From IMG/VR virus record IMGVR_UViG_3300044993_000765, positions 1 through 64,000 of that record: 64,000 nucleotides of DNA; one strand, given 5' to 3'. This DNA comes from a virus. Of this stretch, positions 3,001-19,637 are shown piece by piece (within the stretch, counting starts at the first letter, position 1; the number at the start of each line of letters is the position of its first letter). The notes below the pieces were generated by a model. The model did not search any database, was not told the DNA's origin, and saw only the letters and a program-made list of their open reading frames with translations. The position numbers and the translations under genes were made by a program.

Positions 3001-4998
3001 GGCAGGCTCGCAGTAGGTCGTCGTGATCGCGCGGGCGTTGCCCGTCGTCGGATCGAAGGCCATGCTGTCGGTGACCTGGCCGCGCGCGTTGTACGCCCAC
3101 TTATTGCGCGCGACGATCGCACCGGTGCGGTCCCGGGTCCGCTGTTCGGTCACGCGCCCGGTGACCGGGTCGTGGACGAACTCGATACGCCGTTCTTCGG
3201 GCGTCCCGACCGCCGAGGTGATCGACGTGCGATAGGCCCCGTCGTACCCATACTCGGTCCGGACATTGCGCTTGTCGGTCTGTGACTCCAGGCGACCCTG
3301 CCCGTCGAAGGTCTGGCGCTCGGTTGCGGTGCCTTCCTGTGTCGCGAGTACCCGCCGATAGAGGCCGGGGGCGATCGTGTAGGCGCGCGTGCCGCCCTCG
3401 GCGGTGTTCATCGTCGCACTGTCTTCGGACGGATAACTGATCCTGGTCAGTTCGTTGGGCGTGCCCAGCACACGGCTGGAGGTCGCGCGCCCACGCGCAT
3501 CGTAGGCGAACGAGGCGTAACGGCGTTCGTCCTCGGCGGTGATGCCGGTCAGGTGGTGCCGCTGATTGGCGGCGCCGGCCAGACCGGGCTCGTTGTAGTG
3601 GTACTGGCGTACTGCATTGCCCGGCGTGGTGACGCGCGTCAGGTTGCGGTCGGCGTCGTAATCGTAGGCGACGGCCGTGCCGTCCGGCAGCACGATCCGG
3701 CGCAGCAGATTGCCTGCAGACTCGAACCGCAGCACCCGCCCCTGCCCGTCGGTCACGGTCGCAATCGACCGATCCGCGTGGGTGATGGTCAGATCGTTCA
3801 GCGGATCGCCGGGGTTGCGGATGGCGATCAGATAACCGTCCAGATCGAAGTCGCGCACCTCCCCGTCCGGCATGTGCTGTCGGAAGCTGATCCCGTTCGC
3901 ATTGATCCGCTCCAGCACGCGGCCGACCGAGTTTTCGCCGCGGTAGCGGTTGCCGCTCAACAGCACGTAGGATTCGTAGTTGCCGCTTTCGTCGATGTGC
4001 ACGTAAGGCGCGCTCGTCACCGGCGTGCCGATGATGCGGTCGCTCCAGGTGTGGCTCCAGCCGATCCCGAAATTGCGGTTATTGCGGAACTGCCGCAGCG
4101 AACGGTAGTGGCGGGTGAAGGTGCGGCCCGCAAAGGTGAAGTCGTCCTCGTGCCGCTGCTTCTCGCCGGTCGCCGGGTAGATCGGGTTGCGGCTGCCGGC
4201 GCAACTGCCGCACTGCCGGATCGGCACCTCGATCCAAGCGATATCGTCGTTTCGTGGCTGGCAGTGGTTGGCGGACAACAGCGTCGCGTCCGAAACCACC
4301 CCGGAGATCGGATAGAAGCCGGTCGAGCAGTACAGCGTCTTGTGCTTCTGCAGCGACCAGTTGTGGGACTTGGTGGTCCCGTTCGTGCAGTTCGCGGTCG
4401 TGGTCATGCCCTTGAAACCGAAGCTGACCGTACCGCGCGTCGATGCGGTCGTGCCGCTCAGGGAGGGATTGGCGCTGTAGTCCGTGCGCAGGCTGCTGCC
4501 GGTGATGGTGCAGCCCGGCCATTTGGTCGCGAGCGTGCGTTCGACCGAGCCGATCAGCGTCGATTCGCTGCCGCACCAGTCGCTGTAGCCGGAACTCGGG
4601 TCCGGTGCGGGCACATTGCAGTCGCCCTTGCCCTGCCCATAAATGCCCAGATCGGCATAGAACATCGGCCCGTTGACGAGATCCGCGGGGCGATTGCGCA
4701 GCCAATACTGCATGCGCAGCGTTGCAGACCCCATCTGGATGGTCTGGACGTGCTCCAACTGGCCTGCCGCGCCGTAGTAGGCGGTGCTGCTGCGGAGGGC
4801 CGCCTCGGCATCGTCGAGCGTCGAGAAGACACCGGTGGAGGTCACGTAGGTCGGTGGTGGCGTGGGGGCCACGACCTGCGCGATGGCGCCGGCGGCGATG
4901 AGCGTGACCAGAACCAAGAGGAACCGACCGCGCGGTCGGAGCCAATGCGTGATGCCACCTCGGCCCGGCGGCCGGGCGGTGCCTTGTCTTTCAGTCAT
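1..4998 (-). CDS. RHS/YD-repeat polymorphic toxin with N-terminal signal-like segment and C-terminal caspase/C80-like cysteine protease domain
   Basis: YD repeats. RHS core PGQRYDAATGMNYNYFRDYDPGTGRYVQSDPIGLLGG...DFFGL. C-terminal domain has IATHG and IRLLSC (His/Cys dyad) and visibly lower GC. Likely start is ATG 4998 (MTERQG, followed by hydrophobic FLLVLVTLIAAGAIA); the ORF track starts at 5241. Confidence 0.9.
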   Translation of the reverse strand: MTERQGTARPPGRGGITHWLRPRGRFLLVLVTLIAAGAIAQVVAPTPPPTYVTSTGVFSTLDDAEAALRSSTAYYGAAGQLEHVQTIQMGSATLRMQYWLRNRPADLVNGPMFYADLGIYGQGKGDCNVPAPDPSSGYSDWCGSESTLIGSVERTLATKWPGCTITGSSLRTDYSANPSLSGTTASTRGTVSFGFKGMTTTANCTNGTTKSHNWSLQKHKTLYCSTGFYPISGVVSDATLLSANHCQPRNDDIAWIEVPIRQCGSCAGSRNPIYPATGEKQRHEDDFTFAGRTFTRHYRSLRQFRNNRNFGIGWSHTWSDRIIGTPVTSAPYVHIDESGNYESYVLLSGNRYRGENSVGRVLERINANGISFRQHMPDGEVRDFDLDGYLIAIRNPGDPLNDLTITHADRSIATVTDGQGRVLRFESAGNLLRRIVLPDGTAVAYDYDADRNLTRVTTPGNAVRQYHYNEPGLAGAANQRHHLTGITAEDERRYASFAYDARGRATSSRVLGTPNELTRISYPSEDSATMNTAEGGTRAYTIAPGLYRRVLATQEGTATERQTFDGQGRLESQTDKRNVRTEYGYDGAYRTSITSAVGTPEERRIEFVHDPVTGRVTEQRTRDRTGAIVARNKWAYNARGQVTDSMAFDPTTGNARAITTTYCEPADVSAGRCPIVGLILTVDGPRQGSEDVVAYTYRMADEPTCAASPATCPYRKGDLWRKINAVGHVVENLRYDGAGRPLSVRDVTGVVTDLEYDPRGRVVASKIRGMDDGSEADDRITRIAYNPTGTVHRILSSDGAFMQFEYDAAQRLTNVSDAAGNRMVYTLNAAGERIGEETRDPSGTLRRALTRVFDTLGRLERQIDADERATVLGYDAEDNLSLVTDALLRRIGHDYDALGRLRSTLQDVDGVAALTQFEYDAMDRLTKVIDPNQKPTDYKYNGFGDLTDQLSPDTGLTKFAYDQAGNLERRTDARGITATYGYDLLNRPTSVSYPDSSRNVAYSYDSASGDCLDGERFAQGRLSRMTDASGDTAYCHDRYGNVVRKLQRTQGRTYVLRYLHTDPRGRLPGQNTLLQNPPPGNQWIGMTYPDGSTVRIVRDGQARPRELRVTQANGTAQVLLHSAQYMPFGASTGWTFGNGRQLVRSFDLNGRPQSIRDGAAGGIDMGYRFDAVGNLESLHTANLAEPARRRYVHDGMSRLKQVREGASNSVLHAYDHDATGNRTRRTEGVMLQDYIYVAGRHWLAGAGGIPREYDAAGNTTRIGSANQGLPPGGCFDCPEENPGPGEPGHPGPGDPPPGETQGIMTTESATATDAPAVREFEYDDANRMRAVKHDGVVAMNYLYNGKGERVYRYGSGTAVTSVYDEAGRWVGDYDANGQPIQQAIWLDDLPVGLLVGAGATQKLYYIQADALGTPRVVIDPVRNVAVWRWDLAGEAFGDSAPEEDVDADGIAFVLDMRFPGQRYDAATGMNYNYFRDYDPGTGRYVQSDPIGLLGGPNTYAYANVDPLVFFDFFGLAAEINWYPQRDADLHNGSNAYVSPKGTFTIATHGYSDKIAVQDEHGNPISPQQLWDLIKDRVIKGRYKRIRLLSCTAGAPKYNGRSFASDLAMISGLEVEAPHEYIGYKNGKVVMGPPIPNKWPPQLRIDPNAGFARFSRSCDTFTRQCY

Positions 4999-5357
4999 GA
5001 GATTGTCCCTGTTGTGCGATCGATCGGCGTGCTGCCCGCACGTCGGCCCGTGAGACGGGCTCGCGCACGCGATGCCCGCGTTCACATGAACGCGCATCGG
5101 TGTCTCTGGGATTGAGATTTGGCGTTGCCACCTGATCGACATCCTGCTGTTGAAAAATCGACAGCGAGCCGGATCGCGCGCACGCGATGGCACCTCGCCT
5201 GTCGGCGATGCCTTCCGTGACGGATTGGTGTTTGACTGCAACGCCTGCCGCCCATGGCGGCCCCTGGCTTGGGAGGATTCTAACCGCCTCCCGGCGGTGA
5301 TGGGGTACCTGTCAGAACCGACAGGGGCACCCCCGGGGGGTCCCCCTGCCCACTACC

Positions 5358-8300
5358 TCACTCGGCCGTACCGGTCCCTTCCCGGACCCGCTCGGCCAGC
5401 CTCGGATTGAGGACGATGCCGGCCTCGGCCCGTGCACTCCAGGCCAGCCGAGACGCGATGGATCGTTCTAGCGTCCCCGCCGTGATCGCCAACTCGGGGA
5501 CTTTCCGGTTCCACTCACGAATCTGCCGGACGACCTCCGCCCGGCCTTCGACATCGCCCGTTCGGGTCGCCAGTGCGTAGGCGTCCAATAGCCGCTCCCG
5601 GCGCTTGAGCAGATGCTGTTCGTACCGTTTCGCGGCGTTGTTGCGGGCGTAAGTCTCGGCGAGCTCGGAGGGGGTAAAGCCGCTTAGCTGCAACAACGTC
5701 TGGCGCAGGCTCATATCCTCGATTAGCGGGTCGCCACGCAGGGTGTTCGCGCCCTGTACCTCATAGCGCGCCGCCTTGACCATGGACTTCAGGGCACTCG
5801 GCAGCATTGTTTCGACGCCGCGCCAGGTGTGACCCTCGTCGATCAGTGCCTTGCCGGCGATGACGTTCTTGAGCACACCGCCCATCGGGCCGGCGGCCTG
5901 TTCGAGCAGGTGGTAGTACATTCCCCGCCCTTCCAGTTCGCGGTCCGCATCGCGGAACCAAAGCTGCGACAAACTGACCCGGCTGGCGACATCTGCGCCC
6001 GTAACCGTATTAACCGGTCCATTGAGCAGGACTTCGGCCGCATCGGTACCGAGCAAGTCAGTCAGAAAAGCACGCAGCTCCGTTTTCGCTTCCCATGGCT
6101 CGTCTTCGTCGCCGAAGCTTGCCGCGATGGCGTTGAGTACGCCCATGACGACACTCGCGATCGGCAAGCCGAGTGCACCTGAAAAAAGCGCACTCATGCC
6201 GAGGACGCCGGTCAGGTTACGACGCGCGATACGTCTGGTCTGCGGATCGGCGTTGCGCGTCGTCTGCCAGACCATGCGCCCAAGGTGCCATGTGGTGTTC
6301 AGCGCGTATTGCTTGAACATCAGCAACACCTTCGCGACATTGCCCTGCATCCAGCGCGCTCGGTTCTGGTTCGTGTAGTCGTAGTGAGTGTCCTGGATCG
6401 CATCGATCGCGCTCCGGACAGCTTGATCGAAGGATTGGCCTGCTTTGCGCGAAAGTCGGAACGCGGCGATACCGGTCGCCTCGCGGTTGATGAGTTCGGT
6501 AGTGTGGAAGCCCCAGCCGATGATCCGCATGGCCTCGGCCCAGGCTGGACTGAAACGCACCGCGCCGTCCTCCGCAATGCCGGCAAGACTATGCGCCTGC
6601 GTCCGGTCGATGGCGCCGGCCGCGACCAGCGCCTTGTAGGCGTCCTCCTCCTCCCTGTTCGGCAACCGCCTCTCGATATGCCCAAGCGTTCGAGCTGCGT
6701 CGCTGCCGGCGGCCAGAAGCGCATTGAACGCTTTTACCGCGCCGAAGCGAGCTGCGAGATAGGGATAGCTGATGAGCGCGGTCTGGCTGAGGTTGACCAG
6801 CGCAGAGGCGGGAGAAAGTCCCAGGTAATACACGAAGCCCGCTGAGGAGATCGCCTGTGTGATCGGGCTATCGGTCGGCTGCATGATCCATGCGTGTCTG
6901 CGCTGCAGTTCGGCAAGAATCGCATCTCCCGCCACAAGTCGGCGGGTGTCGGCGTCATCCTTGCGGCGATCGATATCCTGCTGATGCTTTAACAATTCGA
7001 GGACCGACTGCAGCTTGTGCGCATAACGCAACCGCGCCAACTGGTGGCTGCCGTGATGCATGTTCCAGGCGAATGCCCGCACGCCATCAGGGTCGAATCC
7101 GGGCACTGCATTTCGATGAATCTGATGCTTGCGCATCGACATCTCGGGCAAAGCCTGCAGATACAACTGATAAATCTCCTCCTGCGTCTTCTCGGAAACT
7201 CCCGCCTTGCTCAAATGCTCAATGATCTCGGCGACGAAAGTCCCCTGTGGCGCATCCTTTGGTCCGCTCTCGGCTTTCAGCCCCTGGGCTCGAATCGTGT
7301 AGCCCTGCCCCTGCAGGCTGGCGACAGCCCGCTCCAGATCGCTCAAACTCTCGAACATCAGGTACACAGGGACTCCGTCGCGTAGCGCCGACACGAAGTA
7401 ACGACCGAAGCGTTGCAGTGGGAAATAAACCCCCTGCAGGCGGTTACGCTCGAACTGCAGCCGGATCACTTGTTCGAGTCGCCGCTTGTGACTGGCACTG
7501 GCGTCGGTGTCGCGCATACGCGCGACCAGCGCCTCCTCGACGGCATCGGAACGTCCTGCGTAGGCATCGCGAAAAGCGATATAGATCTCCTGCGCCTCCT
7601 TCGGCAAGGCATTCCAGCGGGCCACCAACTCCGGATATGCAGCCCGGCGTCGCTTTTCTCGCGCAGGCATACCGCGCAGAATCTTCGCCTCCTGCATCAT
7701 GTCGATCTTGCTGTCTCCACTGCGTTCGCGCATTTGCTGCCTAATGGCTCTCAGCGCCTCACGGATGGACTTCGGTGTGACCTCATGCAGCTTGCCTCCG
7801 AATCGGAACTGCAGCGGTGTATACGCCTTGGCAGGATCGACACCGGCGATCGTCGCCGCGTGCATCAGCCGGAACAGCTCACGGGCCTGCATGCGGTGCT
7901 TCGATACCCAGCGGCGCGCATCTTCGGCGAGGGTGTCGGCCTCACTCTGCATCTGGTTGCGATCGGCGCTCATCCGCGCGAGATAGTCGTTGTAGAACCG
8001 GATGTGCTCGAAATAGTCGCCGCCGAGTTCACCCAGATGGCGGGTGGTCAACAATCCCAACCAGGCGCTGCGGCTCGCGTCCTTGAACTTGGCTGGCGTG
8101 ATGTCCTTGAGCCACGCCTTGGCACGATCCTTCAAGGCGGTCTGCTCGGGCGCGGGATCGAGGATCGCATCCAGATCATCCAAGACAGCGTTCGGCGTGC
8201 GCTTGCTGAACAGAGGCAAGCCCTCCTCAACCGCTGCACGAACGGCCGGCGTGATGTCGAAGGCATGTACCTCCAACGCATGTGCCCGGAAGCGCGGCCG

Positions 8301-11300
8301 GATCTCCGCAGTTGTGACCCGCCCGCCCAGCGGACGCGCCCAGCGGTTGACCACCGCCGGGAGGATGCCGTCGTAGTAGCCGCCCATGCCGGCATCGCCC
8401 AGGTGGAGCGAGAGCGCATCCAGACGCCGCAGAGGCGTGCCACGCGAGCTGCCGCGCGGGGATAGGTCGCCCTCGCCCGCGCGGACGCGCGCGGCCACCT
8501 TGGCACCCAGCAGCGAGGACAGCAGGTTCGCCGGCACCTCCATTTCCCGCACCACGTCGCCCTGCTTCAAGCCAGCGACGCGGAACGCGCCCGAAGGCAT
8601 GGGCATATAGTCGATGGCATCGACCTGTTCGCCCCGCGAATAGCGCGAGGTCTGCTGCGCGCCGGTCGTCCAGCCGATGCGCTGGAAGCCACGTTCGGCC
8701 GCCATCCGCACCATGCGTTTGATCGCAAGCAACGTCCAGTCTTCGGTGGACTTGAAAGGCGCGTCAGGTGCGACGTTGCGATCGGCGCTTGGACGATACC
8801 CGTAGCGCCGGCCGTGCTGGTGCCAATCGGACTGGATCTCCTCAATGAACAGCATGCGCTTGCCGTCCACGTCCTCGCGCTCGTTGTAGCGGATGTGGAC
8901 AAGGACATTCTTTACAGAGGGGTAGTGTTCGCTATGGAAAGGTTCGTCGGGGTTGCGGCTCGATGGCTGCACCGGAAAAGTCAGGAGCAGTTCGCGGTAC
9001 TCGCGCCCGCCTTCCATCTGGTAGCTCGCGTATCGGCCTTCCGCAGAAACGAATGGCGCAGTTGTTTCTATGCCCGCCGAAAGGGTTTCAAGATCGTGCC
9101 TCTGCGATTCGGTCAGTGTGCGCTCATCGACTTCCTGGCCGTCACGCATGAGAGCAACGCCATACGACGGAAGCGTTTCGATCTCGAACCCCGCTGCCTG
9201 CAATCGATCCAGCGCCGCGTCGTAGCGGGCGACATCTCCGCCGATTTGCTGTTCGCCGATCCGCACCTGATGGGTGCGCACGAAGTCGGTCAGCGCCTCG
9301 CGTGTGATCCGCGCTTCTCCGGTTACGCTTTCCCGTGTAGTCAGCCAAACATCGACATCGAGCCAGTCGCGTTCCGCCTGCTTGAATCCACCGCGCCGCT
9401 GTACGCCATCCAGCCATTGTTGCCACTGCTCAGCGGTTCCCCGCCGCGGTGCGCCTTGGGCGCGCTCCAGCGCCTGCAACAATGCCGAGCGAAAGCCCTC
9501 CACGCGCGAAAACGCTGGTGCCATCGACTCTTTGAGTGACAAGGCACGCTCGCTGCCGCCCAGCCGAACCTGCCTCGCGGCACGCATGACCAACTGACGA
9601 AGCTCAGCCTCCGAGAGCGTCCAGCGCACGCCGAGCTTGCGCAGGAACGCGCGCACGGCCGCGACGACACGATCAAGCACGGAATCCTTCACACCTCTCT
9701 CGGCCAGAATCGCGATGAACTCGGCAATGGCCGTACTGTCCCAGCCGTTATCCAGGTAGCCACGCCGCGCGTGCTCGGCGAACAGGTCGCGATAGCGCCC
9801 CTTCTCTCGCAGACGATGGACGCCTTCGGCGATCTGCGCCCACTGCGCCGGCCCGACGATGGTTTCGATGCCGTAGTGACCGATGGCCTCGTGGATCAGC
9901 ACACGCTGGACGGCACGCCGGTTCGGCAGCGCACTGGCCACCAGATAAACAGTGCCCGTGCTGCGCGCGTAATAGCCTTCGGCGAGGTGAACATCCGGCG
10001 CGCGCCGCGCTGAAGCCGGCAGATAGTCTGGGGTTGCGACGACACGCACCACGGGCGCCCCCTTCCAGTCCACCAGCATCTCGTCCACGACCCGCTGCAC
10101 CTGGGCAACGCTCGCGCCAGCAGCGGCTGGGTTGCGGCGTTTGCTGAAAGCTCCGGCGTCATCGTCCCGCTGCTGCTGGTAGTCCAGCAGCTCGTCCAGC
10201 GCATCGCTGAACCCAGCCTCGCGCAGCGCCGAGCGCTGCGCCTCCAGCGCCGCATCGAGCATAGGCCGCTCATGCTCGGGAATCTCCGGCCCGCGCACCA
10301 GCAACAGCCGCTGCACGCGACGATACTGCTCGCGTGCCTCGCGCAACGCCTGTGTCTGCTCGAAAGGCTTGGCGGCTTCGGCCCTGAAGCGTTCGGCCTC
10401 GCCTCGGGCGTTCTCAATACGGGCTTCGGTATCTACGATTTCCGCGCCGATCCGGTCGATATAGTTGTTCAGCCGAGTCAGCAGGCCGGTGGCCGAAAAG
10501 GTCTGCGCACCACGCTCGTAGCTCGTGACCTCGCCCAGATCGGACGACACGCGCACCCATTGGGCATGCACACGATCAATCTCGAAGGTCACGCCGCGAT
10601 AGGCGAGTTCCACCGGACTTGCTGCGTCGCTCGGACCGATCAGCGCGCCAACGCGCCGGGCAATAGTCTGAGTCAGCGCCTTGCGCTCCCCGAACCGGGC
10701 ACCGTCCAGCGTAGTACCGCCGGGCACCGCCTCCTTGTCCTCGGGCAAGGGGTGTTGCTTGACTTGGGCTTGCACCTCGCGCAATGCCTTCAGGTAACGC
10801 GGGCCACCCATCGCGGCGTACTGCTCGGCCGTGCGCGCCTGCCGTTGCAGGGCCGTCTGGTTATCGGCGTGCGCCAACTCCAACTGTTCCAGTCGGCGCA
10901 CGTCATGGCGCAACTGGGTCTCGCGCAGGATCAGCGGGTCTCCCGACGCGGCGGCCTTCATTTCGGCTGCATTCGCCGCCTCGCCGTCGATGTCCTCGAT
11001 TTCGGTCTGTTGGCCGTCGTATTTGCGCAACTGCTCGATGCCGCGCGCCTTGTGTTCCAATAATTGCCAGCGCCGGGTGTCGTAGGTCTGGCGGGTCGCG
11101 TAGCGATAGATCGCCACCTCAAACCCGTCCGGGTCGCGCTCGTAGAGCTGGTTGCCGCGTCGGATCGCTCGGCCTTCGCGCTGTTCCAGATCGCTCGGCT
11201 TCCACGGGGCATCGATGTGGTGCAGGCCGACGATGCGATCCTGCACGTTGGTGCCGGCTCCCATCTTTGCGGTCGAACCGAACAGGAACCGCACCTCGCC

Positions 11301-14300
11301 GCTTTTGACGCGCTTGAACAGCTTGTCCTTGGCGTCGGGGTGCGGGTAATCGTGGATGAAGGCGATTTCGTTCGCGGGCACGCCGCCGGCGATGAGCTTG
11401 GCGCGCAGATCGTCGTAGACGTTGAATCCTTCCGCGCCGCTCAGGCCCACGATGTCCTGCAAACTGAGGCTGTCGCCGGCCTCGGCATCGAACCCATTGG
11501 CGTCGTTGTAGTCGTCGATTTCGGCTTGGCTCAGTTCCTGCCCGGCTTCGCGCTCGGCCTCACGTTCGGCGATCCAGCGTTCGCGACGGGCGGGATCGCG
11601 CAGGGTCTCCTGCGCCCAGGCCAGACCCTTGTCACGGCCGCCGGGCAAGATGCGTCGCGCGCGACCGGTCGCCGCGTCGTAGACGGTCGTCGTCGCCCTG
11701 GCCGCGGCACCGCGCACCACCAGCAGAAACGGCAGTTCCTCCGCGCCCGCGACCGTGTGCGCCGTGCCGCTCGCATGCGCCAGACTGCCATCGTCCTCGC
11801 GCACGTAGACGCGCTGCGGCTTGGTCGCGGCGCTGCGTCGAGCCGTATTGGGCACCGACAAGTCGCAGAACACCAACTGCGTGCCCTTGTCGGCATCCCA
11901 TTGCCGATACAGCGCCAGCATGCGCTCCAGCGCCAGATTGATCTTCGAGCCGCGGAAGTCCGGCGCCGCCGGGTCGATCAGCCGATAGTCCAGTCCTGCC
12001 TTGTTGGCCTGCCCGGTCAGGGAGAGCGCATTGACCCGGCCCTTGGTCTGCCGGGTCAACTCGCGGATGCGGGCGAAGCGGCCCAGGATCGACTCCGGGT
12101 TGAGGTCGATCTTGGGAGTCAGGGCCGCTTCCACGATGCCCATCTGGGCGTCCTCGCGCGTCGGATAGACCGCCAGGGCGCGCGGGTAGGCTTCGCCGGG
12201 CACCTCGATCTTGACCCGGAAGCGGCCGTCTTCGGCCTCCTCGATCGTCGCCGTTTCGCCGCGCCCAGGATTGAAACCGAACACCACGCCGCCGCCCTCA
12301 CTGCGCGCCAGATGCGGGACACCCATGAACTCGGCCACCTGTGGCGAGCGTTCGGCCACCACGATCTGCGGGCGGCCACCCAGCAGGTTCGGAACCGGGA
12401 AGCGCCCGCCCTTGGCCGCTTCCTGGGCCTTGAGGTCGTCCAGCGTCACCACGTCCGCGAACGCGCGGTAGTCGGCCATCAGTGACGGCAGGTTCTGGAA
12501 CTTCGCAAAGCGGGTCGAAGCACGGAAGCCGGCGCCGGAGGGCGCGACCTCGTACACGTTCTCGATGCTGCCGTACTGCCGCGCCCAGGCATCGAAGACG
12601 TGCAAGTCCTTGCGCTTGAGCGTCGGGTATTGCATGTACCGCTGGAGGTTGAACATTTCGACCAGCGAATTGCTGACCGGCGTACCCGTGGCTGTCACCA
12701 GCGGCGCCTTGTCGCCCAGCGTCCCGAACAGCCACTGCGTCTTGACGAACAGATCGAACGCGCGATCGGAGCCGTTCGGATTGCCCATGCCGGGCACGCG
12801 CGACATCGCCGTGGTGTAAAACAGGTTCTTGAATTCATGAAGTTCATCGACGAACAGGGCATCGACGCCCAACTCGTCGAAGGTCAGCACGCCGTCGCGT
12901 TGGCCGATGTTCGCCAGCTTCTGCTTGACCTTGGCCTCCAAGCGTGCGCGGATGCCCTCCATGTCGCGCACGATGCCGCGGTCGCCGCGCTCGCGCTTCA
13001 TCTGTTCGATGAGGCTGGCGATCTCGTCGATCTGTTCGGTCAGGATGCGGGTCTCGGTCTCGGCCGGCAGCCCGATCTTCTTCAGCGAGGAATGGCCGAC
13101 GATGATCGCGTCCCAATCGCCGGTCACGATGCGGGAAAACAGCTTCTTGCGGTTCTCCCGCGTGAAATCGTCCGGTTCCGCCGCCAGCACCACGGCCCCC
13201 GGATACAGCCGGGCGAATTCGGTGCGCCACTGCACGGTCAGATGATTGGGCACGGCGAACAGCGGCTTGCGCGCGACACCGAGCCGTCGCATTTCCATCG
13301 CGATCGCGACCATCTGGAAGGTCTTGCCGGCACCGACGACATGATCGAGCAGCAGTTGACGCGATTGCAGGCCACGCCACACCCCGTTCTGCTGGTGCGC
13401 GAGCAGGGTCAGGCCGGGACTCATGCCCGGCAGGGTCAGATGACTGCCGTCGTAGCGCCGCTCGACGGTGCGGTTCATCTTGTCGTTGTAGAGCGCAAGC
13501 AGGCGCTCGGCCCGCTCGGGGTCGCGCCAAACCCAGGCCCGCCATTCGGCCCGCAGCGCGTTCTGTTTCTCGCGGGCGCGTTCGGTTTCGGCTTCCAGCA
13601 CAATGCGTTCGATCTTGCCGTCGCCATGTTTGATCGTCTTGGTCACGACCACCGCGCGCCCGGCGAGGGTCGCCTGGAAAATCTCGGTCGCGCCCATCTC
13701 CTTCGTGCCCCAGGTCGAGGCATTCAGTACCCGATCCGGTTCGCCGACGACGTTCACCAGCCACAGGCCCGACCCGCGCACATAGGTCATGCGCGCGTTC
13801 GCGCCCGTCACCTCCCGATGGAAAGCTTGCAGATCCTCTGCCGGCAGGAACGGAGCGCCGAGCGCGATGGTGATCTCGCTGGGCGTCTTGTCGCGCGGAA
13901 TGACCTTGGACAACGCCCCGACGTTGCGGGCGAAGCGCGGATCGCGCCGGGCCGCGTCCTTGGCTTCGACGAGCTTGGTTTTCACATCGCCCGACAGGTA
14001 GTCGTCGGCCGTGACCAGATTGCCGTCCGGCGTTTCGTACACCAGCGGGCCGAGTTCCTTGACGAGCGCGGTACTGTCCTTGCCGTAGACCTCGGTCATG
14101 TAGTCCAGGTCCAGACGGCCACGGTAGTTCAGGCTGGCGAGGTAGGCGTCGCGCGCACTGTGGACGGTCACGAAATCCGACGGCGGGAACAGCACGCGAC
14201 GACGGAAGATATCGGCTTTCGTCGCCTTCGGGGCGCGCGGCTCGATGCCCTCGCGCTTGGCGACGGTCTCGCTCACGCCGGCGTCGTAGTCGAACTCCAG

Positions 14301-17300
14301 TGCCAGAAGCAGGCTGGCGTCCGGGTCGTCGAAGAACAGGCTACGGTTGGTCCGCGATGCGCTGAGGTGGCCGTATCGCTTGAGGAAGGCGTCATAGCGA
14401 TCGTTGAGCAGACGACGGTTGGCCTCGATCTGCGCCTCGCTCGCGTCCGCGGCGCGTTCCAGGCGCATCTGCTGGCGCAGCACGTCGCGAATCTCGATCA
14501 TGCCGCGCATGCGCGCCTCGGCGGTCGCACCGGGCGCCGTCCACGGCGCCGCTTGCGGCTCGCCCATCCGGTCCTCGCCCCGGATCATGATCCGCCCCTC
14601 GGCGTCGATGAAGTAGGCGCCGACCTTCACCCCCTCGGGCACCGCACTGGCGGTCATCGCCTCGGTGCGGTCGATCGGGCTGTAGATGCCCTCCGGCAAC
14701 GTCCGCGCCCATGCCGTCAGTTGCGCGGCCAGATCGCCGGAAGGGGCGACGGTGTAGTCGTTGGCCCGGTACATGGTGCCGCCGGCCGTCTGCGTGCCGA
14801 GGATATGATCCGGGTGATCGACGTACCAGGGGTTGATGCGGAAGGAGAACGTCTCGCCCGTGGTCGGGTGTTCTAGCGTCTGTTCGACGGTCTGCACCCA
14901 GCGCAGGCGCGCGGCCCGCGTGTCGTCGCTCGGCGGGTCGGTGTCCGGGGCGCGCTTCTGGAGCACGATGATATCGGTCACGACCTCGGTGCCGGCGTTC
15001 TCGGCGAACGCGGTGTCGGGCAGGCGCGCGGCGGCGATCAGATCCGCCCGCTCCGCGATCCACTGCCGCACGCGACTGTCTTTGGCGTCCAGAAACTGAC
15101 GCGACACCACCATCATCAGCACGCCGCCCGGCCGTAGCTTGTCGATCGACTTGGCGAAGAAGTAGTTGTGGATGCTGAAGCCCGAATACGGGCTGCGCTC
15201 AGAATCGACGATGGGTTCGCTACCGAAGGGCGGATTGCCGATCGCCACGTCGAAAAATTCGCTCGGGACCGCCACGTCCTGAAACCCGCTCTGGCGAATG
15301 TGCGCTTTCGGATAGAGCGCGGCGGCGATTTGCTGGGTCAGCGGATCGAGTTCGACGCCGTAGAGCGTGGAAGCGTTCCGCAGCTTCGCCGGCATCCCGC
15401 CGAAGAAATGGCCAATGCCGACCGCCGGTTCCAGAATGCGCCCGCGGGTGACGCCCAGACGCACCAGTGCGGAGTACATGCCGTCGATCACGGGCTTGCT
15501 GGTGTAGTGGGCGTTGAGCGTGGACGCGCGCGCCGCGCGCCATTCGGCATCCGTCAGCAGGCCCTGAAGCTCGGCGCGGACTTTCGCCCATTGGGCATTG
15601 GCCGGATCGAAGACGCCCTTCAGCGCACCCCAACCGACGTAGCGCGCGAGTTGGCGACGCTCTTCCGGCGACGCCGGCCGCTGTTCGGCGGCCATCGCCT
15701 TGACGATGCGGATCGCAGCGAGATTGTCCCGCGCCTTGCGCGCGAGCCCGCCTTTGCCCAGATCGTCGGCCAAGCCCTCGACGGCCTGCTCGGCTGTATC
15801 CACTTCCGTCGCGGTGGCGGCGACAACGCCGGCCTCTGGCCCCGCGGCAGGCTCGGCCTGCGGCGACGCGGTCTCGGCCACAACGGAAGAGGCCGCAGGA
15901 TCGTCGATCGCTGCGGCCTCTTGGGTCAGGCGCTCTCGCTGCCCGGTTCGGGCGGAGGGGGATCGTCGTCGTCGGTCGTTGGTGGCTCCAGCGACAACTC
16001 CCACACCTGCGCCTTCTCCCAGCTCGACAGATGATTCAGGCTCGTATCGGCCTTCGCCCGTTCCTCCTCGGCGGTCTGGTTCGCCAGCGCCTCCAGGTAG
16101 TATCCCGACCGGATCAGTTTCTGCACCCGCTTGGGCCAACCCAGCATCCAGCGGTTCGCGACCTCGCGCGCGGTCGGCGACATCGCCAGCAGTTTCGCGC
16201 GCACGTCGGCGGGATAAGCGTTCGGTTTGACCAAGTCCTGCATCGGGGGTGTCCTCCGGGTTCGCGGCGTCTGCCGCCTCGTTCAGCGTCGTGTCGGTAC
16301 TGGTGGCGGCGGCAGCGTCGACAGTGACAACGCGCCCTCCGTCGACGATGTCGGGTCCCATGCCTCCTGCACCCGCACCGTCTCCTGCATCAAAGCGGCC
16401 AGATACTCTCCCGAGTCGATCAGGGCGCGCGCCCGCATCGGTCTCGTTCGCATCCAGTGGTTGGCGATCTGCGTCGCCAAGGGCGACATCGATTCCAGGG
16501 CGATCCGTGCCGCGGGCGGATACCGCTCCGGTCTCAACAGGATCGTCACTGCCCACTGCCTCCCTCGATGCCAGGTCCCTGCCATTGTCGGCCCGACGCC
16601 CCGCGTCCGTCGACAGGCTCGGCGCGATCTGGACATCTGCCCACAACTGATTGGCACTACTGGACAGGGTGATGATGCCGTCCGCGATGACATAGCGCGC
16701 CCCGTAGGCTCCGCCGGTGTTGACCGCTCCGGCCTGCTCGAACGCCCGACGAGCCGCGGCCATCGCCGAGTGGACTTCGGTGACATGGGCGAACGCCGCC
16801 GGAAACGGGACCCGCCCGGACTGACCTGAACGCACCTGCGCAACCAGCCCGTCCACGAAATCCGCCAGGATCGCAGCATTGCCTGTGGGTTGCCTTGCGC
16901 TTTCCGTCGCCGCATCTTCCACAGTCTGTGCCGAGGCGGTCGACTCGATGACAGGTGCAGCGATCTTCGTCCAGCGATCGGACCAGGGCACCTCCCGGCG
17001 TTGCTCGATCCGGCCATCGTGGCTCACCGTGATCGTCTGTCCATCGTCTAGGCGCACCCAGGGGAATCCGGACTTGGCGAACAGCGTGCCTTGGGCCGTC
17101 TGCGGCGCACCAAGCATCAGATTGCGCGATGTCGCCTGCACGCGGTCGCCGATGGCGAGTCCCGCCGCCGCCAGGACCGAAAGCCGCCGACTCCGGTTGC
17201 CCTCGTTCATCTGGTCGGCCAGTCGTTGCAGGACCGGCAGTAGGCGACCGTACTCCGCGGTCGCCCGATATGCCTGTTTGCCACCGAACGCGCGTGCACG

Positions 17301-19637
17301 CTGCGCGACCCACTGATTCGCCTCGGCGTAGCTCCCGAACCTCGGAAACGTCTCGACCGGCGCACGCGCCTCCGCCTCGCGCTGGGCTCGCCGCTCCGCC
17401 TCCCGGGATTGTTCGGTCGCGCGGTCGGTACCGGCCCAACGATAAATCGCGTCCTCAGATGCCGAACGTCCACGCGGCAGAGTGATACCCGTCGTCGCAG
17501 CGAAAAGTGCACGACTCGCCGGATTCATCTTGGCATCGCCCAGATTGCGTTTAAGCAAACCGCGCGCATCACGGCGCTCGATCAGATCGATCAGTTCGTC
17601 TGCGGCCTTCTCGTAGAAGCCGCTCTCCTCATCGGTGACGTTCGGTCGCTTCCGGCGCATCGTCTCCACGAACATCCTGCGCAGCGCCGGACGATCCAAT
17701 CCAACGGAGTTTTCGAGTGGCGGCGCGTCGTTCTCGGATGCCACCGCCTGATCGACAGACACCGACACGGTTTCCCGTTCAGGCGGAAGATTTACAGGTG
17801 CACTCTGCGCATCGGTCAGCATACGGCGGTGCAGGTTGCCCCCTGGGATCGGCTGTCCTCTCGCATCGAACAGCGGCAAATAGTTGCGTTCGCCCTCCCA
17901 ATCGGAACGACGCACACGTACCTTGGTATTGCCACGCTTTTCCCGAAAGCCCATCAACGCTTCGCCTTCAGGCGTAGTGACGTTGAGAACGACCCCTTTC
18001 GGCGTGGCTCCGGTCGATTCCACTGCTATCGATTGGGGTGCTGGCGGTCGATAGACTGATGCCTGCGCTCCGATTCGCGACGACAGCACCGCTTCATTCG
18101 GCGCCGCCGCGGGATGACGGGCGCGCGCCGCGTTCACGTCTGGCGTAAGCCCCAAGGAATCGCGCTCAAGCGCAAGGGCTGTCGCATCCCGATCGAACGC
18201 TCCGCGCTGCGCGGCGGGGATCGCAATACCCTCGGGCGTGACCATCGTCACCGGCTCCGGAAGCGCCAGCAACCGCCGATAAGTCGCCGGTGACTGTCCC
18301 GTATTGGGAGTCGATGATGCTTGTCCGACCTGGCGGTCGCTGGCGAGGGTCTCCATCGCCTGCAGGAACGCGGCATCACCCTGCGGCTGCGGCCGCTCGC
18401 GGAGGGCACCGATACCCCCGAATACGCCGCCGCCCAAACCACCGGCTGCCGCGCTGTCGAAGTACGCCGTGAGTGCATCCGCATCAGTCAAGGACTGTTG
18501 GCCGGCGAACCGCGTCGCGCCTTCCTGTACCGCTTCGGTCGCACCCTCCCCGACCGCATTGCGCGCGAAGCCGGCCGCGACGCGATCCTTCAGTGCTCCG
18601 CCGCGCACACCCCGCAATAGCGTATCGGCCAGCAGCGCATCGCCGAACGTCTCCGCAGCCCCATAGATTGCGCCGCCGGTCAGCACGCGCCCGAGATCCA
18701 CCTCGGGGCCTCCGGTCTGCTCGGTCGCGAAGGCCGCGTTATAGGACTCGCCCATACCGCGCGCGGTCGAGGCCGCCGCCAGAGCCCCCGTCGCACCCAG
18801 CGTACGCATCGTCTCTTTCGCCAGTTGATCGCGCATCAGGCCCAATGCCTCGCGCTTGGCAACCGCCTCGGTCGCACCCATGGCGACCTGCCTGGTGACG
18901 TAATCGGCAGCCAAGTTCGCGATCTGCGCCTGGACTTCATCGCGGACCAGTTTCTTGCCGAAGAAACCGCCGACCGCGCCGCCGATGGTGCCCGGCCCCG
19001 GTGCCGCACCGCTGCCGGCGGCGGCACCAGCCACCGAGAACATCAACGACTCCAGTACGCTCGGCAGCATCTGACCGAGGTTGAACTGCGCCCAATCCGC
19101 CAAGTTGCCGAGTGTGCCGGTGATGCCGTCGCCCGTCGCCCAAGCGCGACTCAAGCTGTCGGTCGGACGCGCATCCTGCGCCTGCCGTTCAAGGAGACCT
19201 TGCGCACGCAAGGCCCATTCTCCCGCAGTCTCGTCGGCGCCGAACAGATCCGCACCCAGCGCACCCAGGCCGTACAGTGCTGCCTGCGTACCTGGCCAGT
19301 AGGTCTGCATGCCGCGCCCGAAATCGCCGGCATCGGTGGGCGGCGGAACATCCTGCAGGAACTGACGGGTCCACTGTGCCGCATCGCCCCCCTGCTGTTG
19401 CGCCAACCAAGGCAAGATCACATTGGCGTAATCGGCGTGAATACGCTGGCGATCCTCGGGTGCGGCCATATTCCAGCCCCGTCGAGCCTTGACGGTCTCC
19501 CAGCGCAGGTCGGGGATTTCGGCCGGAGCAAGCGATGGCACGGCCGGTGCCGGCGACGAAGTCACCGGGTCATTCAGGCGTGCGGTCAGCGCAGGATCGA
19601 CAAAAGCCGATCCGAACGGGTTGTAAGCGTCGGTCAT
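5358..19637 (-). CDS. Giant DarB-like large polyvalent protein: N6-adenine methyltransferase, SNF2 helicase, zincin (MPTase) and PLxRFG-type C-terminus; probable injected virion protein
   Basis: MTase motifs LEPAVGIGHF and AIGNPPF. Helicase motifs HVVGAGKT, LFVDELHEFKN and QREGRAIRRGN. HEAIGH metallopeptidase motif, FIEEIQSDWHQ domain and YFPLQRFG. Located at the end of the virion operon. Confidence 0.88.
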   Translation of the reverse strand: MTDAYNPFGSAFVDPALTARLNDPVTSSPAPAVPSLAPAEIPDLRWETVKARRGWNMAAPEDRQRIHADYANVILPWLAQQQGGDAAQWTRQFLQDVPPPTDAGDFGRGMQTYWPGTQAALYGLGALGADLFGADETAGEWALRAQGLLERQAQDARPTDSLSRAWATGDGITGTLGNLADWAQFNLGQMLPSVLESLMFSVAGAAAGSGAAPGPGTIGGAVGGFFGKKLVRDEVQAQIANLAADYVTRQVAMGATEAVAKREALGLMRDQLAKETMRTLGATGALAAASTARGMGESYNAAFATEQTGGPEVDLGRVLTGGAIYGAAETFGDALLADTLLRGVRGGALKDRVAAGFARNAVGEGATEAVQEGATRFAGQQSLTDADALTAYFDSAAAGGLGGGVFGGIGALRERPQPQGDAAFLQAMETLASDRQVGQASSTPNTGQSPATYRRLLALPEPVTMVTPEGIAIPAAQRGAFDRDATALALERDSLGLTPDVNAARARHPAAAPNEAVLSSRIGAQASVYRPPAPQSIAVESTGATPKGVVLNVTTPEGEALMGFREKRGNTKVRVRRSDWEGERNYLPLFDARGQPIPGGNLHRRMLTDAQSAPVNLPPERETVSVSVDQAVASENDAPPLENSVGLDRPALRRMFVETMRRKRPNVTDEESGFYEKAADELIDLIERRDARGLLKRNLGDAKMNPASRALFAATTGITLPRGRSASEDAIYRWAGTDRATEQSREAERRAQREAEARAPVETFPRFGSYAEANQWVAQRARAFGGKQAYRATAEYGRLLPVLQRLADQMNEGNRSRRLSVLAAAGLAIGDRVQATSRNLMLGAPQTAQGTLFAKSGFPWVRLDDGQTITVSHDGRIEQRREVPWSDRWTKIAAPVIESTASAQTVEDAATESARQPTGNAAILADFVDGLVAQVRSGQSGRVPFPAAFAHVTEVHSAMAAARRAFEQAGAVNTGGAYGARYVIADGIITLSSSANQLWADVQIAPSLSTDAGRRADNGRDLASREAVGSDDPVETGAVSARGTDRPGIDVALGDADRQPLDANETDAGARPDRLGRVSGRFDAGDGAGAGGMGPDIVDGGRVVTVDAAAATSTDTTLNEAADAANPEDTPDAGLGQTERLSRRRARETAGDVADRARGREPLDAGLAQAGAETDPVGILPGGAGEPDRRGGTGEGRYEPESSVELGEGAGVGVVAGATNDRRRRSPSARTGQRERLTQEAAAIDDPAASSVVAETASPQAEPAAGPEAGVVAATATEVDTAEQAVEGLADDLGKGGLARKARDNLAAIRIVKAMAAEQRPASPEERRQLARYVGWGALKGVFDPANAQWAKVRAELQGLLTDAEWRAARASTLNAHYTSKPVIDGMYSALVRLGVTRGRILEPAVGIGHFFGGMPAKLRNASTLYGVELDPLTQQIAAALYPKAHIRQSGFQDVAVPSEFFDVAIGNPPFGSEPIVDSERSPYSGFSIHNYFFAKSIDKLRPGGVLMMVVSRQFLDAKDSRVRQWIAERADLIAAARLPDTAFAENAGTEVVTDIIVLQKRAPDTDPPSDDTRAARLRWVQTVEQTLEHPTTGETFSFRINPWYVDHPDHILGTQTAGGTMYRANDYTVAPSGDLAAQLTAWARTLPEGIYSPIDRTEAMTASAVPEGVKVGAYFIDAEGRIMIRGEDRMGEPQAAPWTAPGATAEARMRGMIEIRDVLRQQMRLERAADASEAQIEANRRLLNDRYDAFLKRYGHLSASRTNRSLFFDDPDASLLLALEFDYDAGVSETVAKREGIEPRAPKATKADIFRRRVLFPPSDFVTVHSARDAYLASLNYRGRLDLDYMTEVYGKDSTALVKELGPLVYETPDGNLVTADDYLSGDVKTKLVEAKDAARRDPRFARNVGALSKVIPRDKTPSEITIALGAPFLPAEDLQAFHREVTGANARMTYVRGSGLWLVNVVGEPDRVLNASTWGTKEMGATEIFQATLAGRAVVVTKTIKHGDGKIERIVLEAETERAREKQNALRAEWRAWVWRDPERAERLLALYNDKMNRTVERRYDGSHLTLPGMSPGLTLLAHQQNGVWRGLQSRQLLLDHVVGAGKTFQMVAIAMEMRRLGVARKPLFAVPNHLTVQWRTEFARLYPGAVVLAAEPDDFTRENRKKLFSRIVTGDWDAIIVGHSSLKKIGLPAETETRILTEQIDEIASLIEQMKRERGDRGIVRDMEGIRARLEAKVKQKLANIGQRDGVLTFDELGVDALFVDELHEFKNLFYTTAMSRVPGMGNPNGSDRAFDLFVKTQWLFGTLGDKAPLVTATGTPVSNSLVEMFNLQRYMQYPTLKRKDLHVFDAWARQYGSIENVYEVAPSGAGFRASTRFAKFQNLPSLMADYRAFADVVTLDDLKAQEAAKGGRFPVPNLLGGRPQIVVAERSPQVAEFMGVPHLARSEGGGVVFGFNPGRGETATIEEAEDGRFRVKIEVPGEAYPRALAVYPTREDAQMGIVEAALTPKIDLNPESILGRFARIRELTRQTKGRVNALSLTGQANKAGLDYRLIDPAAPDFRGSKINLALERMLALYRQWDADKGTQLVFCDLSVPNTARRSAATKPQRVYVREDDGSLAHASGTAHTVAGAEELPFLLVVRGAAARATTTVYDAATGRARRILPGGRDKGLAWAQETLRDPARRERWIAEREAEREAGQELSQAEIDDYNDANGFDAEAGDSLSLQDIVGLSGAEGFNVYDDLRAKLIAGGVPANEIAFIHDYPHPDAKDKLFKRVKSGEVRFLFGSTAKMGAGTNVQDRIVGLHHIDAPWKPSDLEQREGRAIRRGNQLYERDPDGFEVAIYRYATRQTYDTRRWQLLEHKARGIEQLRKYDGQQTEIEDIDGEAANAAEMKAAASGDPLILRETQLRHDVRRLEQLELAHADNQTALQRQARTAEQYAAMGGPRYLKALREVQAQVKQHPLPEDKEAVPGGTTLDGARFGERKALTQTIARRVGALIGPSDAASPVELAYRGVTFEIDRVHAQWVRVSSDLGEVTSYERGAQTFSATGLLTRLNNYIDRIGAEIVDTEARIENARGEAERFRAEAAKPFEQTQALREAREQYRRVQRLLLVRGPEIPEHERPMLDAALEAQRSALREAGFSDALDELLDYQQQRDDDAGAFSKRRNPAAAGASVAQVQRVVDEMLVDWKGAPVVRVVATPDYLPASARRAPDVHLAEGYYARSTGTVYLVASALPNRRAVQRVLIHEAIGHYGIETIVGPAQWAQIAEGVHRLREKGRYRDLFAEHARRGYLDNGWDSTAIAEFIAILAERGVKDSVLDRVVAAVRAFLRKLGVRWTLSEAELRQLVMRAARQVRLGGSERALSLKESMAPAFSRVEGFRSALLQALERAQGAPRRGTAEQWQQWLDGVQRRGGFKQAERDWLDVDVWLTTRESVTGEARITREALTDFVRTHQVRIGEQQIGGDVARYDAALDRLQAAGFEIETLPSYGVALMRDGQEVDERTLTESQRHDLETLSAGIETTAPFVSAEGRYASYQMEGGREYRELLLTFPVQPSSRNPDEPFHSEHYPSVKNVLVHIRYNEREDVDGKRMLFIEEIQSDWHQHGRRYGYRPSADRNVAPDAPFKSTEDWTLLAIKRMVRMAAERGFQRIGWTTGAQQTSRYSRGEQVDAIDYMPMPSGAFRVAGLKQGDVVREMEVPANLLSSLLGAKVAARVRAGEGDLSPRGSSRGTPLRRLDALSLHLGDAGMGGYYDGILPAVVNRWARPLGGRVTTAEIRPRFRAHALEVHAFDITPAVRAAVEEGLPLFSKRTPNAVLDDLDAILDPAPEQTALKDRAKAWLKDITPAKFKDASRSAWLGLLTTRHLGELGGDYFEHIRFYNDYLARMSADRNQMQSEADTLAEDARRWVSKHRMQARELFRLMHAATIAGVDPAKAYTPLQFRFGGKLHEVTPKSIREALRAIRQQMRERSGDSKIDMMQEAKILRGMPAREKRRRAAYPELVARWNALPKEAQEIYIAFRDAYAGRSDAVEEALVARMRDTDASASHKRRLEQVIRLQFERNRLQGVYFPLQRFGRYFVSALRDGVPVYLMFESLSDLERAVASLQGQGYTIRAQGLKAESGPKDAPQGTFVAEIIEHLSKAGVSEKTQEEIYQLYLQALPEMSMRKHQIHRNAVPGFDPDGVRAFAWNMHHGSHQLARLRYAHKLQSVLELLKHQQDIDRRKDDADTRRLVAGDAILAELQRRHAWIMQPTDSPITQAISSAGFVYYLGLSPASALVNLSQTALISYPYLAARFGAVKAFNALLAAGSDAARTLGHIERRLPNREEEDAYKALVAAGAIDRTQAHSLAGIAEDGAVRFSPAWAEAMRIIGWGFHTTELINREATGIAAFRLSRKAGQSFDQAVRSAIDAIQDTHYDYTNQNRARWMQGNVAKVLLMFKQYALNTTWHLGRMVWQTTRNADPQTRRIARRNLTGVLGMSALFSGALGLPIASVVMGVLNAIAASFGDEDEPWEAKTELRAFLTDLLGTDAAEVLLNGPVNTVTGADVASRVSLSQLWFRDADRELEGRGMYYHLLEQAAGPMGGVLKNVIAGKALIDEGHTWRGVETMLPSALKSMVKAARYEVQGANTLRGDPLIEDMSLRQTLLQLSGFTPSELAETYARNNAAKRYEQHLLKRRERLLDAYALATRTGDVEGRAEVVRQIREWNRKVPELAITAGTLERSIASRLAWSARAEAGIVLNPRLAERVREGTGTAE
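15926..16243 (-). CDS. Nested +1-frame small protein 1 (105 aa) inside the DarB-like gene
   Basis: ATG preceded by GGAGG (ccggaggacacccccgATG). Paralogous to 16283..16549, with 25/54 identities ungapped. Confidence 0.65.
   Translation of the reverse strand: MQDLVKPNAYPADVRAKLLAMSPTAREVANRWMLGWPKRVQKLIRSGYYLEALANQTAEEERAKADTSLNHLSSWEKAQVWELSLEPPTTDDDDPPPPEPGSESA
16283..16549 (-). CDS. Nested +1-frame small protein 2 (88 aa) inside the DarB-like gene
   Basis: GTG preceded by GGGAGG (gagggaggcagtgggcaGTG). Shares YP...MSP.A..IAN.WM...P.R...LI.SG.YL.AL with 15926..16243. Confidence 0.6.
   Translation of the reverse strand: MTILLRPERYPPAARIALESMSPLATQIANHWMRTRPMRARALIDSGEYLAALMQETVRVQEAWDPTSSTEGALSLSTLPPPPVPTRR

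Follow-up and report, generated by a model that had tools for sequence, protein, structure and literature searches.

The provirus record IMGVR_UViG_3300044993_000765 of IMG/VR spans 75,953 bp, and its positions 1–64,000 – the whole stretch of DNA analysed here, referred to below as the window – contain a giant gene of the DarB-like antirestriction type that harbours two small genes, nested within it on the same strand and one base out of register. An unannotated nested gene of this kind recurs in more than 100 related phage and plasmid genes, and comparison of these sequences confirms that both frames are kept by selection. We consider it very probable that these are genuine same-strand overlapping genes, in which both frames are used, the small gene is read by internal initiation and the small gene is also the older of the two.

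The giant open reading frame (ORF) occupies positions 5358–19637 of the minus strand, encodes 4759 amino acids (aa) and is open from end to end. Within it, also on the minus strand, lie nested gene 1 (positions 15926–16243, 105 aa, starting with ATG; product P0001), the canonical member of its family, and nested gene 2 (16283–16549, 88 aa, starting with GTG; product P0002), its diverged tandem paralogue. Both are in the +1 frame relative to the giant ORF, as (19637 − 16243) mod 3 and (19637 − 16549) mod 3 each equal 1, and each is preceded by a Shine–Dalgarno (SD)-like motif on the same strand, GGAGG at 16253–16257 for gene 1 and GGGAGG at 16559–16564 for gene 2, in both cases 9 nucleotides (nt) upstream of the start codon. 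P0001 and P0002 align without gaps, with 26 of 60 residues identical (E=1e-14), and are paralogues. An earlier note, made from the window sequence, had reported the pair with the same coordinates, lengths, offset and SD motifs, and had counted 25 identities in 54 aligned residues; all of this holds. The pair can accordingly be classed as same-strand embedded out-of-frame ORFs, each with its own predicted start codon and ribosome-binding site.

The composition of the DNA indicates which frame carries the protein-like signal. Over approximately 16640–15930, the codon-position signature of G+C content (GC) moves from the giant to the nested frame, where the GC of third codon positions (GC3) is 0.80–0.90, that of first positions (GC1) about 0.63 and that of second positions (GC2) about 0.5 – the canonical pattern. 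The GC3 of the giant frame falls to 0.42–0.60 within the same interval, and is as high as usual on either side, before about 16650 and after about 15900 in the direction of reading. The nested translation resembles an ordinary helical protein; the giant-frame translation across the nested genes (approximately residues 1030–1237) is of low complexity and rich in Gly, Ala, Asp, Arg and Pro. In this dual-coded stretch (15926–16640, minus strand), the giant frame encodes a low-complexity linker, approximately residues 1000–1237, that connects the N-terminal modules to the methylase module. As the earlier note had described, the linker sits just before the methylase, ending about 160 nt upstream of the DDLGKGG motif at window position 15767. 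In the nested frame, a stop codon stands 13 codons before gene 1. Upstream of the GTG of gene 2, the nested frame remains open for 156 further codons (16550–17017; hence its listing as a 244-aa ORF); the coding signature there is that of the giant frame, and this extension is a chance-open frame.

The arrangement is widely conserved. Homologues of the small protein were placed in their genomic context at 40 loci – the window, two plasmids, three contigs of metagenome-assembled genomes (MAGs) and 34 IMG/VR contigs, with GC ranging from 41 to 70% – and at all 40 the giant frame is open over the entire small gene, the small gene is in the +1 frame and the third same-strand frame is closed. The giant frame continues for hundreds to thousands of codons beyond the small gene, and the coding signature moves to the nested frame also in loci L005–L007 and in Pseudomonas phage 8P. 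The N-terminal modules of the giant gene differ between divergent relatives, yet the nested gene keeps its position before the methylase module. Its constant downstream neighbour, the N-terminal helical region and methylase module opening at DDLGKGG, is encoded in the window at 13848–15767 on the minus strand; the distance from the end of the nested gene to the DDLGKGG motif is 5–160 nt in most loci that carry the P0001 family (family A), with a slight overlap in one of them. In many loci, a nested-frame stop lies 5–25 codons upstream of the conserved ATG. Both frames are thus maintained across divergent relatives. At one locus, L021:1011–6749 (IMGVR_UViG_3300042362_000235), the giant frame closes about 470 nt beyond the nested gene, and the giant gene may be broken or split there.

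Substitution patterns show that the nested frame is under purifying selection, in agreement with what the earlier note had proposed. Among pairs of sequences with at most 15% nucleotide divergence, changes at first, second and third positions of the nested codons number 69, 34 and 213, respectively, and amino-acid changes number 86 in the nested frame versus 248 in the giant frame. Nested-frame identity exceeds giant-frame identity in 98.8% of 561 pairs. The P0001 orthologue in L014 is 97% identical, and seven of the nine nucleotide changes in the core fall at nested third positions.

The giant frame is constrained in a different manner. For a stop codon to arise in it, a T is required at a nested third position, followed by a codon beginning with AA, AG or GA; such codons are plentiful in the Glu/Lys/Asp-rich nested protein. 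When the expected number of stops is estimated by permuting synonymous codons within each nested gene, 33 distinct family-A genes show none against 33.5 expected (for window gene 1, none against 1.9), 40 other nested ORFs from distant relatives show none against 36.8, and 35 clusters sharing less than 50% identity with one another show none against 32.2. The fraction of codons ending in T (T3) is 0.07 in the nested gene versus 0.35 in the host gene at a locus of 41% GC, with corresponding values of 0.06 versus 0.33 and 0.02 versus 0.19 at other loci; because nested T3 is already depleted relative to the host gene, the permutation test is conservative. These comparisons show selection for an open giant frame, achieved by avoiding T at nested third positions; its sequence can otherwise vary freely, which fits a linker.

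The theme extends beyond family A. A search of viral contigs for the methylase module yielded 80 loci. Wherever the methylase is 57% or more identical to that of the window, a family-A nested gene is present, in the +1 frame and with its end a short distance before DDLGKGG. Distant loci, with methylase identities of 32–47%, mostly lack a match to the family hidden Markov model (HMM), yet there too the coding signature moves to the +1 frame just before the methylase, where a +1 ORF of approximately 80–130 aa begins with ATG and mostly has an SD-like motif upstream. Altogether, a +1 ORF that has an ATG lies just before the methylase in about 78 of the 80 methylase-related viral loci. The distant nested ORFs fall into several subfamilies (with motifs such as MNLQNWISQA..HW.E.QP, A.KHW..WLP and MEFK.PYL.AM..QAP), and T3 depletion recurs in them. 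When the entire available giant ORF is scanned, its strongest frame-switch window coincides with the nested ORF in 60 of 65 distinct loci.

Cultured phages with this arrangement include Pseudomonas phage 8P (host gene 8P_023, a 'structural protein' of 5145 aa), Burkholderia phage Bcep22 (host gene gp75), Erwinia phage PEp14, Klebsiella phage SopranoGao, Ralstonia phage Gerry, Vibrio phage VvAW1 and Microcystis phage Mwe-JY07. The nested gene is annotated in none of them: the records give the giant coding sequence alone, its relatives going under names such as 'DarB-like antirestriction' or 'PLxRFG protein', and the expectation that gene callers would miss the nested genes is borne out. Bacteroides phage BKO1-TP3, with 45% GC, probably carries the arrangement as well: an 87-aa +1 ORF (L137:2654–2917) lies just before the methylase module of its DarB-like gene, with a T3 of 0.03 versus 0.29 in the host gene. 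This ORF has no family match and may be a further, unrelated-looking member of the nested-gene theme. A search of the accessible literature brought up no paper on phage 8P and no link between DarB-like or polyvalent proteins and nested or overlapping genes; in a survey of polyvalent proteins (PMC5512222), a search by term returned no mention of such genes.

The small proteins form a coherent family. An exhaustive HMMER search (E<=1e-3) gave homologues of P0001 in 79 clusters at 50% identity, most of them 90–100 aa long and most aligning from their own first residue to residue 1 of P0001. The family alignment (A1) has a conserved core – M..L....YP, IANRWMLGWP.RV..L...G.YL.AL..Q.E.E and HL...E....G....PP – and the start is conserved too (MQxLY..P..YP), preceded by an SD-like motif that lies at the same distance from it in nearly all homologous loci. 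The proteins are small and mostly acidic, with a median isoelectric point of 5.6, and an AlphaFold2 model of P0001 built on A1 is a five-helix bundle with a mean predicted local distance difference test score of 88. Scans of P0001 and P0002 against Pfam, NCBIfam and PHROG gave no meaningful family match; the P0001 model had no match at E<=0.001 in Foldseek searches of the PDB and BFVD, and the best Z score in a wide VIA-align structure search was only 4.9. The ESM Atlas returned solely unnamed hypothetical clusters, with a TnpV-bearing cluster at rank 24 (score 0.75) that serves as a lead only. Sequence searches of the PDB produced a weak AlpA match alone for the A1 profile (7xya_G, E=0.036) and designed helical repeats alone for the profile of TnpV-like nested ORFs from distant loci (alignment A3); neither was used. 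The family was present in 2 of 400 genomes from the class of one MAG host, both already among the loci described above.

Our explanation of the arrangement is as follows. At the level of sequence, a cistron of about 90 aa, with its own SD motif and start, lies wholly inside the giant gene, in the +1 frame and immediately upstream of the methylase–helicase core. Ribosomes coming from the giant ATG would read the overlap one base out of register and produce a flexible, disordered linker between the variable N-terminal modules and the methylase module, and others would make the small protein by internal initiation on the giant mRNA. The small gene is presumably the older reading: its codon usage is normal, its product is modelled with confidence as a helical bundle, and distant relatives resemble TnpV. 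The giant frame, a low-complexity read-through kept stop-free and nothing more, looks like the younger one. The linker may have arisen when polyvalent genes, growing by accretion of modules, fused across a small gene that had to remain a separate protein. The earlier note had spoken of overprinted proteins; the nested genes are real, and the direction of overprinting was probably the reverse.

The function of the small protein can be addressed only tentatively. The small gene is always inherited as one block with the methylase–helicase module, and it is possible, if doubtful, that its acidic helical product is a dedicated partner of that module: a chaperone, a virion-incorporation factor or a regulator of activity. 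The earlier note had named a chaperone or inhibitor of the methyltransferase/helicase and anti-defence factors as candidate roles. Bcep22-like phages have no homologues of the P1 helper proteins Hdf, DdrA, DdrB and Ulx (PMC9144972), and the partner idea is attractive because these phages carry the giant protein in their virions yet lack such homologues. A bolder proposal, to which we give some credence while holding it to fall short of probable, is that a nested TnpV-like gene is the obligatory helper of non-P1 DarB-like systems – in phages and plasmids of Proteobacteria, Cyanobacteria and perhaps Bacteroidota – and that the dual-coded linker is an evolutionary bridge. The helper would then fold the giant methylase–helicase, load it into the capsid or a type IV secretion system, or switch it on; and since modules could fuse only by reading across an indispensable small gene, the helper would have become locked to its client module.

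The overlap might instead be merely apparent, the giant ORF being a series of separate cistrons – a gene for the N-terminal modules, the small gene or genes, and a methylase–helicase gene – with the frame between them passively open through T-poor third positions. The Prokaryotic Genome Annotation Pipeline (PGAP) treats the plasmid relatives in this way: in Acidovorax pACP4.3 and in a Cupriavidus plasmid, the small gene is annotated and an 'N-6 DNA methylase' starts after it. In both plasmids, however, the methylase frame is already open some 400 nt before the small gene (L001:7568–8594 in Acidovorax and L002:1323–2241 in Cupriavidus). An ATG and an SD-like motif are present there, GC3 follows the coding pattern, and the two plasmids share a conserved N-terminus (MQLDLFGAT...). 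The PGAP start is probably some 300 codons too late in each, and as the frame opens upstream of the small gene, the overlap is present in the plasmids too. The chance of finding no stop at a single high-GC locus is admittedly not small (P(0) of 0.07–1.0 per locus), and the record of Sinorhizobium phage PBC5 splits the gene at this point. Yet the supposed upstream gene would have no stop, the frame continuing on both sides at 40 of 40 loci and about 78 of 80 further ones; at 41–55% GC, T-ending codons make up 0.29–0.35 of the host gene versus 0.03–0.07 of the nested gene; and no stops are seen where 32 would be expected over 35 clusters. Separate cistrons therefore appear very improbable. Hardly more can be said for a +1 ribosome shift, comparable to that of dnaX or the tail-chaperone G/GT pair, that would make the small domain the C-terminal end of a truncated isoform. 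The nested frame of window gene 2 is indeed open upstream to 17017, and in PBC5 (L134:1802–3115, AF448724.1) a small TnpV-like domain shares the frame of the upstream orf33 and forms its end, the methylase frame opening only at 1882, about 570 nt before orf33 ends. PBC5 is, however, an old Sanger record from 2001, in which a 1-nt insertion or deletion would look identical; either the giant gene is truly split in this phage or the record contains such an error. A shift would call for a frame open from a conserved shift site and could do without a start of its own, whereas a nested-frame stop lies 5–25 codons before the conserved ATG in many loci (13 codons before window gene 1), the ATG and its SD-like motif are conserved at a fixed distance, most database homologues start at alignment residue 1, and no conserved slippery motif was noticed in a search that was not exhaustive; we leave this alternative only a slim chance. 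A short methylase isoform made by termination–reinitiation was considered separately and rejected: the codon that spans the nested stop is GTA, CTA or ATA, not a start.

Several observations weigh against genuine overlapping genes with the properties proposed above, or against parts of that account. Openness of the +1 frame is common in these GC-rich genes, with 242 other equally long open stretches in 490 kb (about 0.5 per kb), which leaves composition, conservation and stop avoidance to carry the case. Such frequency would suit a chance or compositional artefact – two alternative-frame ORFs that code for nothing – but the comparative data refute it, with paralogues at E=1e-14, 79 clusters, purifying selection, a confident fold and conservation of position, start and stop, and it can be dismissed for practical purposes. 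The product of the probabilities of finding no stop in the 35 clusters, 10^-18.7, assumes independent lineages, which is only roughly true. Nested gene 2 lacks several near-invariant residues (R31 is replaced by H, W36 by R), its C-terminal half has diverged, and P0002 could be losing or changing its function. Gene 1 might accordingly be the only functional one, and gene 2 a decaying duplicate whose frame is still open, a view that also draws on its GTG start, its lack of the conserved C-terminal HL..E..G motif and the absence of a second copy from the similarly close relatives L005, L006 and L017. We nevertheless hold this to be unlikely: P0002 matches the family HMM with E=2e-20; L014 and the more distant L015/L016 retain, at the same place, a second copy of equal length that has an SD-like motif and a start of its own, that of L015 having 88 aa, AGGAGG and ATG, and 42 of 80 residues identical to P0002 (alignment score 187 in the nested versus 140 in the giant frame); the nested-frame GC3 signature spans gene 2 (0.80–0.86); and the giant frame has no stops across it. 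Some relatives also do without a nested ORF, namely P1 darB – which is devoid of the N-terminal modules as well – the Streptococcus suis SNF2 gene and L101, with a GC of 30%. The link between the window family and the TnpV-like ORFs is weak, both in hhalign (A1 versus A3, E=0.006 but a probability of 6%) and in cross-HMM matches of 15–16 bits. The fold and family searches, finally, gave no informative match that would back the proposed function, and the translation of both frames across the overlap is itself a prediction from sequence; a search for sequencing runs listed metagenomic DNA only and no RNA.

The host gene deserves a closer description. The giant ORF combines variable N-terminal modules with a methylase, an SNF2/ResIII-type helicase, LPD39 and a PLxRFG-type motif (PLQRFG in its translation); the Pfam matches are to an Eco57I-like N6-adenine methylase, ResIII/SNF2, Helicase_C and, at 1e-29, LPD39. 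It can be classed as a DarB-like polyvalent protein, to judge from this predicted fusion of an N6-adenine methylase to an SF2/SNF2 (superfamily 2) helicase together with polyvalent domains. DarB-like giants are the largest genes of many phages, occupying about one fifth of the genome in Bcep22-like phages, and serve as a model for injected 'polyvalent' counter-defence proteins. The methylase–helicase dyad is described in the polyvalent-protein survey (PMC5512222), and P1 DarB is known to be virion-borne and to protect injected DNA from restriction (PMC9144972). In phage JC1, the giant protein gp69 was identified as a virion component by mass spectrometry, with a search space that did not include the nested ORFs (PMC9144972). 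Directly downstream of the giant gene in the window, at 1–5241 on the minus strand, an ORF of at least 1746 aa contains RHS repeats (1.8e-47) and DUF6531; it is a polymorphic-toxin-like protein within the prophage.

The nested arrangement matters in several respects. A conserved hidden gene at a fixed module boundary offers a concrete candidate partner for DarB-like giants. It also permits a clean genetic test, since the start of the nested gene, or a stop in it, can be altered without changing the giant protein, and vice versa. Annotation is corrected in both directions: phage records miss the small gene, and PGAP plasmid records keep it and trim the N-terminus of the methylase. Dual coding is replicated here to an unusual degree: in no fewer than 35 divergent lineages, one frame is under constraint for its sequence, the other for openness only. 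This makes the system useful for studying how overlapping genes originate and persist, and it suggests that the linker, rather than the small gene, is the overprinted reading.

Among known proteins, TnpV calls for comparison, the earlier note having mentioned a weak resemblance to it. For the two window proteins this does not stand: neither P0001 nor P0002 has a match to the Pfam TnpV model (PF14198) at E<=1, the gathering cut-off being 27 bits, and TnpV matches at E<=0.1 number 0 of 39 among family members. It does stand, at or just under threshold, for distant positional equivalents. L093 scores 27.0 bits, equal to the cut-off; L091 scores 21.3 bits (E=2.7e-4); another distant equivalent matches at 3.6e-5 and the Bcep22 nested ORF at 0.045; and 7 of the 19 distant nested ORFs in A3 match at E<=0.1. 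In the hhalign comparison, ANRWMLGWP..V..L..G of A1 is paired with A..HW....P.....L..G of A3, and the AlphaFold2 models of the window protein and of a TnpV-like nested protein have four core helices in the same order. TnpV, which is uncharacterised, is a small protein encoded by Tn4451/Tn4453-type elements; its postulated role, an aid to excision, rests on an analogy with lambda Xis (PMC3158075). The likeness, then, is to a small helical mobile-element protein of about 110 aa whose model is matched by distant DarB-like nested ORFs; the window proteins differ in matching no such model and in having an extra N-terminal helix, and TnpV genes in transposons stand alone beside serine recombinases rather than nested in a methylase–helicase gene. 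In Streptococcus suis, TnpV-carrying integrative mobilisable elements insert specifically into the snf2 gene – a large SNF2/methylase gene – of integrative and conjugative elements (PMC9815147), which connects TnpV with these giant genes in a second, curious way; no nested ORF is present in the S. suis SNF2 gene examined.

A different resemblance emerged for the nested protein of L090 (L090:2600–2932), the AlphaFold2 model of which has as its best structural match PG0816 (PDB 2apl; Z 7.2, root-mean-square deviation 2.3 Å over 64 residues, 19% identity), followed by a match at Z 5.2. We take PG0816 of Porphyromonas gingivalis to belong to the DUF1896 family (PF08989), whose genes presumably adjoin large methylase–helicase genes in Bacteroides conjugative transposons. 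In a genome search for DUF1896, the only match was in the control genome of B. thetaiotaomicron. PG0816 is absent from the top matches of the window protein (best Z 4.9), and a Z of 7 is not decisive for a helical bundle.

As an embedded gene, the closest parallel is Rz1, which lies within Rz in phage lambda and many others, Bcep22-like phages included (PMC9144972). There, too, a small gene is wholly contained in a larger one on the same strand, in the +1 frame, with its own start and conserved across many phages; both Rz products are functional, as those described here are predicted to be. By contrast, the host here has about 4000–5000 aa, the part that overlaps is a disordered linker and not a structured region, the nested frame is the more constrained one, no joint machine of the two products is known, and the nested gene is unannotated in the phage genomes checked. 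Another parallel is comS of Bacillus subtilis, which encodes a small protein out of frame inside the giant multi-module gene srfAB and on the same transcript; it is a lineage-specific 46-aa regulator. The two systems share an out-of-frame small ORF inside a giant multi-module gene, but comS has no broad family, whereas here we find a widespread family of about 90 aa, with its own predicted fold and at a fixed module boundary in very divergent hosts. In the Dar system of P1, DarB is accompanied by the helpers Hdf, DarA, DdrA, DdrB and Ulx (Piya et al. 2017, as summarised in PMC9144972). The nested protein has no sequence similarity to any Dar helper, and P1 darB has no nested ORF; by analogy, however, with a virion-borne methylase–helicase antirestriction protein that needs small accessories for its incorporation and function, it is a candidate accessory of the non-P1 DarB-like giants, in which homologues of those helpers are missing. 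Judged by the sequences compared, a prominent family of counter-defence genes holds here a well-replicated variant of the embedded-gene theme, one that reaches far beyond a single prophage.

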